DNA of 62,153 nucleotides, counting the filler, from Rhabdomonas costata (Eukaryota): NCBI GenBank assembly GCA_019059605.1. It is 22 parts of 22 records of this genome, joined end to end, with 100 filler letters (N's around TTAATTAATTAA, not from the genome) between each part and the next. Parts side by side here need not be neighbours in the genome. Positions count along the whole stretch, not along the records: positions 11,327 to 14,054 come from JAHMHO010002217.1; 21 more parts are not named here. One strand, given 5' to 3'. Below are positions 11,227-27,910 of this stretch, one piece after another. Below the pieces are notes generated by a model that ran no database searches, was not told the DNA's origin, and saw only the letters and a program-made list of their open reading frames with translations. The translations under genes and the position numbers were made by a program. The first letter of the stretch is position 1, and the number at the start of each line of letters is the position of its first letter.

Positions 11227-12202
11227 NNNNNNNNNNNNNNNNNNNNNNNNNNNNNNNNNNNNNNNNNNNNTTAATTAATTAANNNNNNNNNNNNNNNNNN
11301 NNNNNNNNNNNNNNNNNNNNNNNNNNTTTTTGTTGGTAAGCTTTTTTTTGGTTGCATCGTGCAATGAATGTATTGAAAAAGGTCAAGGTGTGCAGCCTGT
11401 CTGCGCCTTTTTTCTTTATTTTGTGCTGGTGCAAATGACTCCAGGCCTGTTTCGGTCGCCTTGCATTTCCTCCTGCTCCTGTGTGTTCCGCCTGCCCCTG
11501 AACGGTGCTCCTGCACCTCCCGCGAAACGGAATTCTGAACTGAGTGGCATTGATTTGAATTGAACTTTTTGGTCCACGTCGAGGTTTGAGGCATGCACAA
11601 CCCTGCGCTGGTCAGCTCTGCCTTTTCATCAATGCGGTGCTTTGGTAAGATTTGAAGGAGCTGAACTCTTAAGTTTAAACCTTGTTGAGAGTAGGTGAAC
11701 ACCATGTTACCAGAAGTATCTGGAGTTTCCCAAGTGTGGATTTTCAGTGCATCTAAAGAGGGTGTGAACATGTGAAGTTCATAATCCACTTCAAGAGAAT
11801 GAATTAGGTGCTGGAATTTACCTTCACACCTTGCAGTGAAAGGTTCATTTCAAAAGAGTGGGTAGCAGTTGCCTTCCTGTGGCCTTCCTGTGAAAATGTT
11901 GGTTCTCATCGTCCGAGAACCAGCTTACTACGCCATGGGAGCAGAAAGAACCGGCCTCTGAATTCGTGCGTGCCCCCCAACTCATTTTGCATGTGCTGTG
12001 CACTGCGGGCGGAAAGTTGCGCATATTACTGTTTCAAGAGAGTGAAAAGTGTCTCCAATCTTTTTTCCCCATCTGATATCCCCCGGCCGGTACTAACTGC
12101 TTGCAAAAAAAATTGTTAGATCTGAGGTATAATGAACTCAGGCTTGAACACATCCGCAAAAAGTGAGGCTGCAAGGCTGAGGCATCTCCCTTCGCCCTTC
12201 AG

Positions 12203-13869
12203 GGTGGGTCCTATGCCACTTTGCTGCGGATAGCCTTCCTCCTCGAGAGGCTCTGCTTCACCTCGCCATTGCTCATCACGGCTTTCATGTCATCGGCGCT
12301 CTGACCCGCCTGGGCATCCCTGACCTTCTGGGCGGATGCTCACGAACGGCCCCTGCCGTCGCTGTTGCCATCCGCGCCGACACTTCCGCCGTTTTTCGTC
12401 TATTGCGAGCAGCGGTTGCGGTCGGCGTGCTTCAGATAGACCCCAAGTCTGCTTTGACAGCCGCCGCCGAGGACCCTGTGGCAGGCACTTTGTTCACGCT
12501 AACTCAGACGGGCGAGGTGCTGCGTCGAGGCGCCCCAAACTCCATGAGGGCGTTTGCTGTGGGTGAGGGTTCGAGAAGGCGGACGGGTCATGAAAAAAAT
12601 TTGAATTTTCTACATGCCGTTGGATTCATTCACCTGGGGTTTTTGAGGAGAGGGAGAATGCGAGCGAGTGAGAAAGTATTTGACATAGTTCCCGAATATT
12701 CAAAGGTCTACTGGACCTCTTTTTGAAATCCCCATCAGTTGCCACAGGTTTGCGCTAAATGGGCTTATCGTATCTGCGGGGGGGGGGGTTAAAAATTCCT
12801 ACGGATGAAAGTTCCATGTTCACCACGTTCTTGATTGCTTCGCCATTCGAACCCGCACTGCGCTCAACCGTGTCCGAATACACTTCGCCCGCATACCACC
12901 TGCCCTACGGCCTGTTGGATACTGCCGTAAGGACTGGCCGCAGCACCACTCAGCAGGCCCTGGGCAGTGACATCTGGAGCTACTTCCGCAAGGTGCCCGA
13001 AGAGGGGATAATGTTTTCGGAGGCCATGAAGGAACTGTCTTCAACACTGACGACTCCCTTGGTGAACTCCACCTATGACTGGTCAGGAATTCACGTCGTC
13101 GTGGACGTCGGTGGCTCGCAGGTTTTGCCGGCAAAGGAGTGGGGCCAAACAAAAACAAGTCGAACGCCAGCTTCGACCCACTCCCACCTAGTTTTCACAC
13201 TTTCGCAAAACAACTCAACTACACATTCATCCCCCCCCACACACACATTCACTTGCAAAATTCACATTACCCAAACCGTAGCTTGGGAGTGACTATCCCA
13301 CGATCACAGCCGATGGAACAGAGATTTGTTGCAGGGAGAATTTTTCTTTTGTCTTGGAGCAACGCTGCTTGCAATGCACGTGACCCTTACCGTTTTTTGT
13401 GTGGAACTCGCCAGTTGACAACTCTGCTTGCTCGACATTTGCCCCCCACCCTCAAATTCTTGAGACGTTCCTTCAAGCCTTCGTTCCTTTTGACCTTCCG
13501 CATTGCGCAGAGTGGAATCTCGAATGGCAAAACCAACTACCTTGCACTGCATTAACTTAACTTCGATTTGAGCTTCTATGTATCAGTTAGTATTTATACA
13601 TATTTTTTCTTTGTCTTCTGACACTGCCTTTTTCATACTATTTTGTTTTTGTTTGTATGGGCTGGACAGGGGGAATTTCTGGCCCAAGTGCTGCAGAAGG
13701 TGCCCAACGCAACGGGGGTTTTGCTCGATCTTCCTGAGATTAAGGGTGCTGCGGAGGCCTATTTGGAGGCCAGTGGGCTTTCTGAGCGGGTTCAGGTGGT
13801 AGCCGGTGACTTCTTCAAAGAAGTTCCCCGCGGGGACTGTTTCCTGCTGAAGCACGTACTTCACAACTG
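12203..13869 (+). CDS. SAM-dependent O-methyltransferase (Methyltransf_2/COMT-like with dimerisation domain), partial; exons ~12203-12557, ~12866-13121, 13670-13869
   Basis: Dimerisation region LTRLGIPDLL...VFRLLRAAVAVG. SAM motif VVVDVGGSQ|GEFLAQVL. Also VLLDLPE, VAGDFFKEVPRGDCFLLKHVLHNW. Confidence 0.9.
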
Positions 13870-14155
13870 GTGAGCTCTTTGTGCCAGCTGGAAGCTTCGT
13901 AGTTTTTTTATGATAAAGCTGAGACCTTTTTGCAGAACAAAAGCCGTCACAAATCGCCCCCTCTCCTGGCGACGGCAAAAACATTCGAACATTTTGTTGC
14001 TAATTTTCTTTTGAATTCTGAATTCTCCTTCGAGGGCTTATCATCAAAAAACACNNNNNNNNNNNNNNNNNNNNNNNNNNNNNNNNNNNNNNNNNNNNTT
14101 AATTAATTAANNNNNNNNNNNNNNNNNNNNNNNNNNNNNNNNNNNNNNNNNNNNT

Positions 14156-16884
14156 CGTATTTCTCGTTCGTGCGATGACTGCATGCTCGGTCCCATTATG
14201 ATTGTAACGTTTAAGAATCACGCTCTTGACGACATTCTGATGGGATGTCTTGATTTCCTTCCTGGCAACGAACGCTCTCGACTGATCCGGGTTGGAAGCA
14301 GGAGTCAGTGCGAAGCGCTCTCGGAGCATAACCTAAATTCAGTGTGCAGGTTTCACCCTGCCTACTATGAAGTGAAGAAAAAGCTGGAGAAAGCCCGCAA
14401 AGATATTGCAGCAAAGACCAACCTTAAAAACCTTAAAATGAAGAAAGTTCAAGGCTCACGTCCGCGGAGTCCAGGCAGCCAAGGCCCAGCCCCAGCGTGT
14501 GATGACGACGATGAGGACGAAAATGACGAAACAAATGTTGGTTTGCTGAGGCCTAGTTATTCGGATGCCCAGGACCGATCCCTTTTTCAGACTGCGGTTT
14601 CCGTTTGCCCAGATAAGCAATCCGAGAAGTTGCAAAATGATTTTCAAGAGCTGCAGCGTGAACTGTTGCAGATGCGAGATTTTGCTCGAGTTAACACCAT
14701 GCGACAGGCCGCAATTATCGGCTTGACAACCACGGGCTGCGCACAGATCCAGCACCTTCTTCCGAAGATTCGACCTTCAGTGCTGATTGTTGAGGAGTCT
14801 GCGGAAGTTCTTGAGTCTCAGATCGTTGCCTGCCTGCAGGATTCTCTGCAGCAGCTGGTTTTAATCGGAGACCACAAGCAGCTGCAGCCAATGGTTGCCG
14901 TGCAGGCCTTGGCTGATCATAACAATTTATGTTTGTCGCTGTTTGAGAGGCTGGTCAACAACCGTTTTCCCAGGTTCATCCTCCGATATCAACGCCGAAT
15001 GCCCCCCCAGGTGTGCGCGTTGGTCCAGCCATTTTACGAGGAAGACGGCCTTCCTGGAATAGAGAATCATGCCTCCGTTCAGCAGCGAGCGAAATCCGTC
15101 CCCGGACTTCCCAGTAATCTCTTTTTCTGGGACCATACTCTCCCGGAGGAAGCTGGCCTCAATGGGATGAGCAAAAGCCCTGCAAGCCAAGGCGAGGCCT
15201 TGATGGCTGTTCTTCTGCTCAAGCAGCTACTTGAGTGCAAAGTTGCGGCGACGAGCATTACCGTCCTTACACCATACAAGGGCCAAGAGAAGCTCCTTCG
15301 AACGTTTGCCTCGGAAGCTGGGCTACCCACCGAAATTTTCGTGACAACAATTGACCGTTTTCAGGGTGACGAGAACGATTTTATTGTGTTGTGCCTAACC
15401 AGAACTTCGAAAATGACGAACTTTCTGAAAAAGGAGAATCGGTTGTGCGTTGCCCTCAGTCGGGCGCGCCGGGCACTGTTCGTGCTGGGCAGTGCCCAGC
15501 TTCTTCAAAACCCAAAGCTCTGCCCCCACTGGAATCGGGTGGTGAAAGATCTTCAAGCAAAAGGGCTTGTGAGCCCCCACCTACCGCTGCGGTGCCCCCG
15601 GCATACTGGTCATTGCTTTAGCATTGCCCCTCTTTCCCAAGGTGAGCTTCCCATCAAGGACATTAAGGCCACTGTCAAGAATATCTTTGAGGTGTGGAAA
15701 TGTCCCGTTCCCTGTGCAAGCCGATTTGAGAACTGCGCCAATCCCGCTCATATTTGCCAGAAAACCTGCCACTCTGAGCCCCATCTGACGTGTCCTCATC
15801 TTTGCGGGAAAGTCTTGAGTTGTGTTCACAGGTGCCAAAAGAAATGCGGCGAAACATGCGGTTGCACCTTCTCCGAGCTGAAGATCCTTCCGTGTGGCCA
15901 CGAGCAAAAAATCTTCTGCGGTCGCGGCACAACTCCGTGCATGGCAGACACCTTTGTCCCTCGCCCCCACTGTGATCATGTTGCAAAGGTTCCCTGTAGT
16001 AACCAGGAAGTGAGCCTATCTTGTGGCGATTGTGAAAAAGAGCGAATTGACACACAGAGGGATCGTGCTGCGGAGCTGCTGAAGGAGGCCCAGAGTCGAG
16101 CAAGGGATCATTCCAGGCCGGCCTCAGTTGACATCCCACCGTCACATGCAGAGTACAACGAGCTTGTGCGTAAGCTGCGACCCTTTATTCCGGACGAGCT
16201 GGAGACAGAGCAGCAAGTGGTGAAAAAATCGGTAAATCCCAGCTTGGAAGCGGCCTTCTGGGCTTCAGTCAAGAAACTTGGGAATCCCAGGAGAATTGAT
16301 ACGTTGTGTTTTGTTCATCTCAAACCCCAAGCGCTCGAAAAGATACTGAAAGATGGATTCGACCTGAAGCGGGATGGATCAGTTTTCCAGTCTCACCATG
16401 GCATTTTGCTCCACACTACAATGCCCATCCCCGAATCGGGCGCTTCTCATATCCACGCGTTAATCTGCAAGGTTGCAGTTGGCCAGGCGAAGTACATGGA
16501 GCTCAAGGAGATTGATACTGCCACGATTCGGCTGCTGAGAAAATCACATGACAGCTGCGCTCAGCTACCTGATGGGAGGTATGTGGTTTTTCATCGCTCT
16601 CAAGTGCTTCCTGAGGTTCTTATTAGCAGTGCAGTTCGCAGAAAGGCTTTGATTCCGGGTCTTGTCCCCCGCCATTGGACTTCGGGTTCCGGGCTGATTG
16701 ACGTGACAAATGAGATGGCGCCGAAGCTGCTGAACCTTATCAAGGCATCCAGTCACCCCGTATGCAAGGGTGTTGATGGCAAGTCGTGTATTGCTGACCT
16801 TCACATCAAGCAGGTTCTTCGCAACCAGAACCTCACTTTACTAAGCCGTTATCGTCTTCAACAGAGCTCCATTCTCGAAGAGAA
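14156..16884 (+). CDS. ZNFX1-like SF1 (Upf1-family) RNA helicase + NF-X1-type zinc fingers + PARP-like domains; open at both contig ends, no introns
   Basis: Helicase motifs PIMIVTFKNHALD, VLIVEESAEVLE, LIGDHKQLQP, SLFERL, VLTPYKGQ, TIDRFQGDEND, NRLCVALSRAR. Cys/His-rich fingers CQKTCH...CVHRCQKKC...LPCGH. ART-like ILKDGFD...ICKVAVG...YVVFHRSQVLP. Confidence 0.9.
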
Positions 16885-18699
16885 NNNNNNNNNNNNNNNN
16901 NNNNNNNNNNNNNNNNNNNNNNNNNNNNTTAATTAATTAANNNNNNNNNNNNNNNNNNNNNNNNNNNNNNNNNNNNNNNNNNNNTTTTTGTGTTAGATTT
17001 TTTATTTACTAGAAACGGCGAAATGGCATTCTTCTGCTACGCGAAACGCTGTGCCTTCGAAAACTTGTTATAAACTTCTTAATTATCAGTGTCTCTGTGT
17101 TCAGCACCTGGCCGATGGCAAAGTGGAACGGAAAGGGTGCCGGTGCTGCCCGTTTACAAATCCGAAGCAAAGCTCCAAGTGTCGTTTCCGCGAGAAAATA
17201 GCCCCAGCCACCAAGTAAAAAGCGTGGAGTCTCAGAGACACTAGGAGCAATGCAGCAATGCGTGTAGCCGCTGGAAAATAGCAGCTGCGCGACAAAGGCC
17301 CTAGACACGTGGTGCAGAATGGAAGTTACCATATGTGGGATCCGGTACCCACGGCACTGTTTGGTCCAACTGCACTCTAGTAATATTACTCCTTTATATC
17401 ACTCACATAATATTACTCCTTTAGATCGGTTGTTTGTCCAATAGTCAGCTGCGTCACGTTCGCTGTCATCCGGATATAGGCTCAGGGCCGTTTTTGTTCA
17501 CTTCTGACGGCATTGTCAACAGTTCACAGCTAGTGTCACCCCTGTGACATTGTTTACTGCATTTTCCTGTGATTTTAGTCTGAACCATTAGCTTGTTTGT
17601 GCTAGCACTTCATGTTGTGTTGATCTTTGGTTTTTCTTGATTTGTATTTGTGTTTTTATCAGGTCATGATAAACAAAGAGCGTGTCGATATGAATAAGTT
17701 TAAGACAAATTACGAGTCGTTTCTAGTAATGTCTTTATGGGTGTGCAATACCCCAACGCCAGCCCTGACTTTTCACCTAAACCTGAAGTTTTCTAAACAA
17801 ACGTTTTTTGAGAAGCACGTCAGCAGCGTATGTTGTAGACATCCTTGCACACTTATGCATTGCAAAACCACTCCAACATTTTGCAGTTGTTATACAGTAT
17901 TTAGTAAATAGAGAAGTATTTTTAAATTACGCAGCAGTGCGTTGTAGCGCATCCTGAAGTGGAGTATTGCAAATTCATTTGTTTTTGTTGAAATGGAATC
18001 ACGCCTCAGTTTATAACGTTTATGTGAAAACTCAAAGTGACCAGCGTTGAAAAAACCAGTAGATGTGAACAGGTTTCTTAATTATGAATGGAAGTAGTTA
18101 TAACTGCATGATTAAGGGTTTCAAACACTGAAGCTGAAACACGTGCTAATGGTGCCCGAAGTTGATAATTAGATTGTGTTGCACAAGAATGCGTCAGAGT
18201 TTGGACTTGGATTCGACTTTGTCTCATGAATGCACTACGTGCAAATGCATCTTGTCGCATCTTGTCTTGTGTACGTATAGAACGTTGTAATGTGTGAAGA
18301 AGAACTTGCAGTTCACGAGAACAATACGTTGTATACGTTATAAGTGTATTTGTGGGTGCATTATCTGTTGAGATTTGGGGCGACTTGGCGTTGGGTTAGG
18401 TTTATTTGAAATATATCACAGACCGTTACAGATTGTAGAAAATGCGGCGTTACGCTGAATATTTCGCATGTTACAGTGGGGGATCGAATGTTAAAGCGGA
18501 AGCGCTGTCGTGTTGCCATGTCGAATGTACATGTTTGAATGGCATCATCGTGAACTGACAGAAGGCAAATACATCTGGAAGGCCGGTGGAGTTTGCAATA
18601 GTGTACTTTTATTGGAGGCTTGGTGCTCCAATGCGAGTGGATACAGTAAAGCTTCAGGAAGAATGGTGGTCTGAATACTGGATGGACGAGCTACGTGGA

Positions 18700-25773: not shown

Positions 25774-27910
25774 AGTGCTGGTGCGGGGGTTCGCCTGGGG
25801 ATGACCAGTGTGCTGGCGACGGTGATGTTCGTGGACATCGTAGACTTCACCCGGATGTGCGAGTGGGCCACCCCAGACATCCTGGTGGGCATCCTGGGGG
25901 ATTACCTGGGACATGCCTGCAGCTGCATCGTCAGCACCAACGGCATGCCCACGCTACATTAAGTTGTTCCTTCATTGCATTTCCCCGGGTTTGCTGTTGG
26001 CGAGAGAGTAGTCGGAGAGTATACGGAGGGCCTTCGCTTTCCCACGGAGTGGCATGTAACACGGAGCGGGGTTGGAGTCGGGGAGATCACTGGGGAACAT
26101 GTCTGGTGTGGGGTGTCTTCGGGGGTCGGTCTCGGTCCTGTGTGAATGCTGCCCGTCACGTTCAGGAACGGTGGACAAGTTCATTGGCGATGCCGTGATG
26201 GCGTTCTGGTGTGTGCGAATATGCAGGCGTTTGGGGGCTCTCCTTCATGTTGGGGGGTGACGGTTTCCTGTGTTAACAATTGCTTGAATGAAGTTATCAG
26301 GAGCGCAGTAAACCACGGTCGGCGCTCCTAACGGAGATACGACCTCCTCTTACTCACTCTTGTTTCTCATCAGTCAGCAGCCAATTTGAGGTGTGCTTAG
26401 AATGCTTATTTGCGCAGCACTGGCACAGTCTACTGAATCCCTAACCCCCAAATTAAATCATTGCAGTGCTCGCGCGTGGCCGTAGCCACGCCCCATCAAC
26501 TTCAATTGGGCCCTCTAATTCCATTTCGCACCCATATATTGCCCTCCTCCTTCTGCATAACTTTTGGTGGGCCCTATATCTCTTCAGAGCTCAAGAAAAA
26601 GCAAGTGCCGCGCCGGAATTTTAACACTGTACAGAGTGATAACCGCCGATCGTGACAGCGCCCACGACCCTTGGCCCAAAAACAAACCAAAATCGCGCGC
26701 AGGAACGCCCCGCAGCGAGTTATGCACCACCCCCGGCGGGCCTGTGGGGCGGCCTACGCTCTGGTGAGTGGGCTGACAGAGCTGAACGCGCTGTGGGCGG
26801 AGCGGGGTTGGCCCTCGTTGCGGGTCCGAGTGGGGCTGCACACGGACCAAGTCCTGGTGGGCAACGTGGGGTGTGACGAGCGCATTAACTACACCGCCTT
26901 GGGTATGTTACCCCTCTCGCCCCATCGCAGGACACCACTCTCACAATCACTATCTCTCGCTGCTCCTATAATGCCTCTCCAGTTAGAAAGGGGTAGGCCA
27001 ATGATGAGACCTCGAAAGCAACAGCCCCAGTCCCCCGGGCAGCGGCTTCAGCTGATTCCCGAACAGCACCATCCGCTCGACAGCCAGAAGCAGACCGTGA
27101 CACCTCGGCATCAGATTATGATTACGAGGCACACGTGACTCTGCAGTTCGTCTGTATCCTCGTACGCACACGTGCTTCCTTCTTTTCTTCGTTCAGTTTT
27201 TTATTCGTACTCCGTTCACACAAAATGGTGTGTGTGTTGCTTATGTACGGCATTTGGCGGCCCCTCACCTCTCCTCCGCCAATCTGGCTCCTTCGACCTC
27301 ACTGAAAGGGAACCACCCCCCGCGCTCAAATTTTCTGAGGTGGAGGATGGAGCCCCTTGATTAATTCTAGCAATCCACGATTTTGCCCACCACTCCATAT
27401 TTTTATTACTCGCTTTGGGCCATCACACCCATAAAGATAAAGTGGCTGCATTTCTGGAGTGTTGTAAAAGGGGTACGAAAGACCGGAAGTGGGTGGGGGG
27501 AGGGGGTGAAAGATCAAGAAACCCTGCCTCCCCAACTACCGACCCGCACAGCGTTTCGGAGACCTGCGGCACCCATAAAAGACCCCGGGCCTGTTTTGGG
27601 ATAAGCCCTTCATTGGCTTGTCCCCTTAAACCACGCTGCACTCACTCCATGGCCCCGAAACGTCTCTTTGTGTACGGTGACTCTTTGTGTTTGCTTTTGG
27701 TTTGGTTTTTTCCTTTCGTCCTGGGCCTCCCTGCTAGAACCCAGGCACTAGTGTGCCCTGTAGCTGCTGTGCGTTGGTCTTCTTTTGAGTGGCCTCCTGG
27801 GTGGGGTGGGCGCTCAATGCGCAGGGGATGGGGTTAACGTGGCCGCTCGACTGGAGTCCCTTGGAAAGGTGTACGGGGTCACCGTGAGCGTTTCCGATGC
27901 CGTGGTGCAG
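25774..27910 (+). CDS. Class III adenylate cyclase catalytic domain; exons 25774-25942, 26166-26208, 26703-26902, 27825-27910
   Basis: ATVMFVDIVDFT, GTVDKFIGDAVMAFWNAP, RVGLHTDQVLVGNVG..ERINYTALGDGVNVAARLESL. Both metal-binding Asp, the specificity Lys and the Asn/Arg pair are present. First intron is GC-AG. Confidence 0.95.

Follow-up and report, generated by a model that had tools for sequence, protein, structure and literature searches.

The question raised by the O-methyltransferase gene of Rhabdomonas costata, a colourless, primary-osmotroph euglenid with draft genomic and transcriptomic data, is what interrupts its coding sequence between the dimerisation and the methyltransferase domain, and at which borders the interrupting DNA leaves the message. 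The gene lies on a contig occupying positions 11327-14054 of the analysed window, i.e. a stretch of 62,153 bases made up of 22 contigs, each 2728-2738 nt long, with linkers of the form N44-TTAATTAATTAA-N44 between them. Since the window consists of joined contigs and is not one molecule, genes lying on the two sides of a linker are not genome neighbours. Within the gene, the frame of exon C (12181+3k) may be followed as far as ...NSMRAF, and the reading is resumed in the frame of exon D (12759+3k) from VSEYTSPAY. The sole AG dinucleotide within 12780-12875 is that at 12810-11, located 58 nt upstream of exon D, and GT dinucleotides are present close to the 5' border at 12552, 12559, 12563 and 12569. 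The frame jump, the lack of a nearby AG at the acceptor and the GT dinucleotides had all been pointed out in an earlier note on this DNA, which placed here a stem-closed intron without conventional borders; each of these observations was reproduced in the present analysis.

Two transcript-derived proteins of the EukProt set EP00906_Rhabdomonas_costata, RCo048221 (P0153; 135 aa) and RCo048222 (P0154; 389 aa), show 100% identity to the locus and belong to one 90% cluster. RCo048221 was recovered with the read-through frame of exon C, and RCo048222 as a member of its cluster. In the species paper the RCo numbers are listed as "Rhabdomonas transcript ID" (Soukal et al. 2021, PMC8219788). The gene is transcribed; the earlier note had named an untranscribed pseudogene as an outcome that would overturn its proposal. 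The longer protein, RCo048222, contains complete Dimerisation and Methyltransf_2 domains (Pfam), its C-terminal 92 residues falling outside the window. Mapping of this protein onto the contig by exact 5-mer chaining gave a colinear arrangement, in which residues 38-146 correspond to 12229-12555, residues 147-230 to 12870-13121, and residues 231-297 to 13670-13870. At the junction of interest RCo048222 reads ...GEVLRRGAPNSMRAFVSEYTSPAYHLPYGLLDTAVRTG..., i.e. NSMRAF|VSEYTSPAY, and it aligns with bacterial and fungal homologues through this site with no gap. Because the protein maps to 12555|12870, the message lacks exactly 314 nt, with ...GCG TTT joined to GTG TCC... (...SMRAF|VSEY...). Judging from this predicted protein of a transcriptome assembly, the 314-nt stretch is absent from the mature message. 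The proposed stem-closed intron of a euglenid O-methyltransferase gene is thereby upheld as a segment missing from RCo048222. The shorter protein, RCo048221, ends with ...AFAVGEGSRRR, which equals genomic 12553-12582; it thus reads into the intron and is a fragment still carrying it.

The exact borders differ from those originally suggested. A junction GC|A ACC (12557|12866), corresponding to an intron of 308 nt at 12558-12865, had been favoured, which requires AFA|TVSEY at a place where RCo048222 has AF|VSEY. The earlier note had itself allowed for an error of a few nucleotides; the position can now be corrected to TTT|GTG (12555|12870), with 314 nt removed.

The gene, all features of which are located on the + strand, begins with exon A (11364-11387), which contains the start codon, encodes MNVLKKVK and is followed by GTGTGC; it exactly matches residues 1-8 of both RCo048222 and RCo048221. 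Exon B (11912-11965, with a provisional 5' border; SENQLTTPWEQKEPASEF, followed by GTGCGT) is separated from exon C by a conventional GT-AG intron at 11966-12202 (RCo048222 residues 28|29 = 11965|12203). Exon C (12203-12555) encodes the O-methyltransferase dimerisation domain and ends with ...GAPNSMRAF. It is followed by the 314-nt nonconventional intron at 12556-12869 (GCTGTG...TCAACC|G; residues 146|147 = 12555|12870) and by exon D (12870-13121), in which the Methyltransf_2 domain starts (VSEYTSPAYHLPYGLLDTAVRTG...VDVGGSQ). The next intron, at 13122-13669 (residues 230|231), is a plain GT-AG intron, as had been stated before, and leads to exon E (13670-13869; GEFLAQ...KHVLHNW), followed by GTGAGC. 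The 5' part of the gene (11364-12226) shows alternative splicing: RCo048221 joins exon A straight to exon C, skipping exon B, and RCo048222 contains a 20-residue exon B segment.

Two small disagreements were noted between the contig and the transcripts. Both RCo proteins contain Pro37 (LLPDS), whereas the contig reads ctg-cg-gat and is one base short at 12227/12228, within exon C. Since Pro37 is shared by RCo048221 and the spliced form, this 1-nt difference sets the contig against both RNAs; its cause is either a mistake in the assembly or a genuine frameshift of the copy that was assembled. The second disagreement concerns residues 9-10 (EI) of RCo048222, for which no coding sequence was found between exons A and B (11388-11911) with models assuming one intron, a 1-nt deletion or indel, or a micro-exon of 5, 6 or 12 nt; there is also no AG directly upstream of exon B (11912). 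Given the one-base gap at 12227/8 and the fact that residues 9-10 are not encoded where expected, the contig and the transcripts are not perfectly the same molecule.

The position of the junction was also approached through the spacing of homologous proteins. A phmmer search with the exon D frame against 1.84 billion representatives identified 431 relatives at E <= 0.001, and 78 full-length homologues of 300-400 aa were used for a junction profile, against which every in-frame, stop-free pair with the first intron base at 12490-12620 and the last at 12780-12920 was scored (n=6129). Each of the 36 best-scoring pairs removes exactly 314 nt. The pair 12556-12869 obtained 266.4 bits (rank 9, counting from 0), compared with 267.3 bits for the best pair and 261.7 bits for the 308-nt junction 12558-12865. 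It had been predicted before RCo048222 was seen, on the basis of homologue spacing and of the |GC...CC|G borders published for R. costata. Locally, there are two GC dinucleotides (12550 and 12556) and two CC|G sites (12854|5 and 12869|70); the exact spacing of the homologues results from the combination 12556-12869. Borders of the type GC..CC|G are carried by 16 of the 6129 pairs, among which the transcript-supported one has the highest score.

Only three placements within the scored grid yield RCo048222: 12556-12869 (GC..CC), 12557-12870 (CT..CG), which produces the same mRNA, and 12555-12868 (TG..AC), which produces the same protein with Phe encoded by TTC. At the protein level of RCo048222, TTT|GTG and TT|C GTG are alike. 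None of the three has GT-AG, GC-AG or AT-AC borders. Several other candidates were contradicted by RCo048222, namely (i) 12577-12866, relying on CGG at 12580 and CTG at 12858 with N3/N6 spacing (254.4 bits), (ii) 12560-12864, relying on stem geometry with N3/N6 spacing (260.8 bits), (iii) the three remaining GC..CC|G pairs that start at 12550 or 12556 and end at 12854 or 12869 (255-259 bits), and (iv) 12559-12872 (GT..TG), which would give AFA|SEY.

The same data bear on the reading that a conventional GT-AG intron at 12552-12811 is removed in the main product, adding 18 residues (SMFTTFLIASPFEPALRS) to the protein; the earlier note had named this very product as one that would overturn its own proposal. 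By reading, this is the sole in-frame GT-AG pair, its donor GTTTGC resembles that of the next intron (GTTTTG), and the extension is open, with an exon-like GC content at third positions (12/18 by count). Moreover, the phmmer alignments of many homologues begin inside the extension. The alignment is only apparent: ALRSTVSEY imitates the SLRxxxxxx motif, and this motif is already encoded by exon C. The GT-AG product would read ...NSMRASMFTTF..., which RCo048222 does not; the 18 residues are missing from it, and the model (252.1 bits) scores 15 bits below the best junctions. We therefore regard the chance that this intron gives the main product as negligible.

The ends of the 314-nt intron are complementary, as had been proposed, and form a helix of 16-19 bp. 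In both the RNA MFE and the centroid structure, 12562-12565, 12567-12575 and 12578-12583 pair with 12839-12859, forming approximately 19 bp interrupted by a bulge and a small internal loop, and a repeat search detected an inverted repeat at 12563-12574/12847-12858 (12 nt, 92% complementary). The core of this terminal helix, recovered by RNA folding and repeat search, consists of a 5' arm at 12567-12583 and a 3' arm at 12839-12854, with pair probabilities of 0.74-0.99 when longer flanks were folded. A 4-bp extension links 12562-12565 with 12856-12859; with longer flanks, 12558-12566 pairs with 12885-12893 of exon D and not with 12856-12859. As the outer bases prefer exon D under these conditions, only the core helix is taken as the robust part of the structure. 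The upstream junction is 11 nt from the core helix and the downstream junction 15 nt; when the 4-bp extension is counted, these distances become 6 and 10 nt. When the first 40 nt of the intron are paired with its last 40 nt, the duplex energy is -37.0 kcal/mol, a value reached by 4 of 7505 other segments of the same length in the 62-kb stretch and by 1% of 2000 end shuffles. The gene's three conventional introns have corresponding energies of -18.6 to -22.6 kcal/mol, that of the intron between exons B and C (11966-12202) being -18.6 kcal/mol. The fold of the whole 341-nt fragment is no more stable than that of shuffled sequences (z = -0.03), and only the terminal helix stands out. An Rfam search over the contig returned one chance-level match (E 0.7, 18 bits versus a gathering score of 60).

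Introns of this kind have been reported in the same organism: seven nonconventional introns of R. costata were described as candidates, and 26 cases annotated by blastx are listed (Soukal et al. 2021, Sci Rep, PMC8219788). As shown in Table S6 of that paper, the described, transcript-verified introns start with GC (7/7), their downstream exons start with G (7/7), and most of them end with CC (5/7). The intron at 12556-12869 (TTT|GCTGTG...TCAACC|GTG) follows the same pattern of a GC start, a CC end and a G opening the next exon (PMC8219788, Table S6 and Fig. 4). The distances between the borders and the helix are also similar: by eye from Table S6, three of the four best cases in print show values of approximately 10/8, 10/13 and 11/13 nt, compared with 6-11/10-15 nt here. 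In addition, both the published introns and the present one are transcript-supported and have a retained form (PMC8219788). The locus itself is absent from the 7 described and 26 annotated cases, and none of the Table S2 contigs of 2727-2732 nt, nor of those in the rows from NODE_2498 onward, fits this gene, which makes its absence from the published intron tables probable. The single contig of 2728 nt in Table S2 was rejected, since it carries four CT/AC introns belonging to a 27-intron transcript. The paper does list a different O-methyltransferase-like transcript (TR50117, NODE_4) with the boundaries "CG/AG" (PMC8219788). The intron at 12556-12869 is ordinary for euglenids and is a new addition to the small published R. 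costata set, being the eighth beside the seven described candidates, with its junction fixed by RCo048222 and independently by homologue spacing.

The similarity to the nonconventional introns of Euglena is only partial. According to the parts of the Euglena study used here, these introns obey a genetically defined code, 5'-N3CDG-/-CH'GN5-6|R (Nomura et al. 2025, PNAS, PMC12501133), and share with 12556-12869 the non-GT-AG borders, the paired ends, which in Euglena are required for bringing the junctions together, a purine as the first base of the downstream exon and the presence of conventional introns alongside in one gene. The earlier note had placed CTG (12858-60) at -8..-6, which does not hold; no RCo048222-compatible placement agrees with N3CDG/CH'GN5-6. 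At the 5' end (N3-C-D-G), positions +4..+6 are TGT, GTG or TGG in the three placements; at the 3' end (C-H'-G followed by N5-6), positions -8..-6 are CGC, GCT or CTC, and positions -9..-7 are GCG, CGC or GCT. The purine at the exon start is present (G at 12870 in the GC..CC placement). The spacers between borders and helix are longer than the 3 and 5-6 nt given for Euglena in the same portions of that study (PMC12501133). This deviation seems to be typical of R. costata, because the published introns of this species (three of the four best cases) also have long spacers. The general definition of euglenid nonconventional introns applies to the present one: its borders are not GT/GC-AG or AT-AC, its ends pair, and it is absent from RCo048222.

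The suggestion that this is an intermediate intron with a spliceosomal-like 5' end could not be sustained. Euglenid intermediate introns (Milanowski et al. 2016, as cited in later work) resemble 12556-12869 in having a GT-containing 5' region beside a structured intron, but, in that secondary account, one or both of their borders are conventional, whereas neither of the borders used here is. The first GT comes 3 nt after the junction, no compatible placement starts with GT or ends with AG, and the GT dinucleotides at 12559 and 12563 lie inside the intron, unused, which is why we do not assign it to the intermediate class. Outside the euglenids, introns of hemistasiid diplonemids likewise lack GT-AG and have G/C-rich ends with extensive end pairing, as described in the sections of PMC12621601 drawn upon here. 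These organisms belong to a different class of Euglenozoa, in which, according to the same sections, such introns are in the majority and may be spliceosomal.

Taken together, these data make it highly probable that 12556-12869 is a nonconventional intron whose terminal helix brings the two junctions together and which is cut by machinery blind to GT and AG. In such a pathway, the helix of the pre-mRNA (core 12567-12583/12839-12854) would draw the two junctions together, and machinery that does not read GT/AG would cut and join at the paired borders. By analogy with Euglena, removal would probably occur after spliceosomal splicing, and the intron would probably be released as a circle. In Euglena gracilis the removal of nonconventional introns follows that of spliceosomal ones, as reported in the abstract of Guminska 2018 (PMC6221363), and a nonconventional intron of tubA is excised as a circle (Guminska 2021, as cited in portions of Nomura 2025, PMC12501133). 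The rule by which the cut sites are measured would differ from the Euglena N3CDG/CH'GN5-6 code.

An ordinary U2-type spliceosome acting at non-canonical sites, with the terminal helix taking the place of splice-site recognition (an idea discussed for diplonemids and Fritillaria), seems to us improbable at this locus. Diplonemids do combine a conserved spliceosome with mostly noncanonical, end-paired introns (PMC12621601, in the sections cited above), the trans-factors of euglenid nonconventional introns are described as not known in the relevant part of Nomura 2025 (PMC12501133), and the GC with which the present intron starts is a minor conventional donor dinucleotide. However, the intron ends with CC, with no AG within 58 nt, and the donor context TTT|GCTGTG is unlike the GTGAG, GTGCG and GTTTT of the conventional introns of the gene. 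Two good-looking GT sites, located 3 and 7 nt downstream, are ignored, and the different times at which the two intron classes leave in Euglena (abstract of PMC6221363) also speak against a spliceosomal route.

A different explanation places the 314 nt at the level of DNA, the contig containing an inverted-repeat insertion of 314 bp, with RCo048222 derived from an allele or copy without it and RCo048221 from a filled copy. The complementary ends have the form of inverted repeats, filled and empty transcript forms both exist, and the contig and the transcripts show the small disagreements described above; furthermore, the draft was obtained from amplified gDNA and its assembly is fragmented (Soukal et al. 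2021, PMC8219788). Nevertheless, this explanation appears very improbable. A target-site duplication is lacking: the borders have only 1 nt in common and can be slid by no more than this, and the 8-nt flanks of the arms have 4/8 bases in common (by count). A blastn search of the 62-kb stretch for a second copy of the intron gave only chance or G-run matches of 10-17 nt, and the 21-nt 5' arm had 0 matches in JGI metagenome contigs. The borders agree with those of read-verified introns of R. costata (|GC...CC|G; PMC8219788), and RCo048221, the filled form, shares Pro37 with the spliced form. The same results bear on the earlier idea that the intron originated from a MITE-like insertion. Terminal inverted repeats are present, as imperfect arms of approximately 19 bp, but no direct repeat longer than 1 nt was found at the borders and no other copy in the window, and a MITE origin is unsupported.

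Inverted repeats and paired ends were also seen elsewhere in the window. The strongest end-to-end duplex of the whole stretch (-51.9 kcal/mol) is formed on the neighbouring contig by the 113-nt arms of an inverted repeat at 10497-10609/10794-10906, which are 96% complementary and 184 nt apart, and which may represent a foldback or MITE-like element. The scan with 314-nt segments also revealed strong end-to-end pairing for G-rich/C-rich 22-nt arms at 45329-45350/45532-45553 (73% complementary; -39.8 kcal/mol) and for 26461-26774 (-40.8 kcal/mol); both may be stem-closed introns or elements.

With a nonconventional intron as the preferred reading of 12556-12869, the repetition of GC...CC|G borders together with the failure of the Euglena code poses a sharper question, namely what the machinery of R. 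costata reads. It is possible, although doubtful, that the nonconventional introns of this species follow a cis-code of their own, consisting of |GC, a helix that starts approximately 6-11 nt into the intron and stops approximately 8-15 nt short of the 3' border, and CC|G, with machinery that, in this heterotrophic lineage, measures its cuts differently or is itself different. The same tentative proposal would assign to this class the many rows recorded as "CG/AG" (60 occurrences) and "CT/CG" (22 occurrences) in the exonerate tables of the paper, as slid or reverse-strand placements. For the intron of NODE_2839 the manual border is GC..CC|G and the exonerate record is "CGAG" (PMC8219788), which we read as the reverse complement of a CT..CG placement slid by one base; 12556-12869, when slid by one base, is likewise CT..CG. 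If R. costata does use its own code in this way, the class would be far commoner than the seven described cases. Exact-identity look-ups of the EukProt RCo proteins offer a practical route for settling other nonconventional-looking candidates of R. costata.

Two further sequences related to the gene were noted. RCo047025 (P0003) of R. costata and P0002, encoded by an ENA contig of 2265 nt and the only hit of a near-length search with exon D, are 52-55% identical paralogue-like proteins that share a starting Met (MPGxYLPF), located six residues beyond the position of the intron in the present gene. To judge from the sequences, this shared start would be consistent with an intron at the equivalent position of those genes that was left in or went unrecognised. 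P0002 is without the intron separating exons D and E. In JGI metagenome contigs, 139 pattern matches for relatives of the gene were obtained, none of which was confirmed.

Finally, the next contig of the window (14156-16888) is nearly filled by one intronless open frame of >900 aa, which contains the Upf1-like SF1 helicase domains AAA_11 and AAA_12 (E 1.6e-15 and 5.1e-33, respectively), followed by a cysteine-rich tail.
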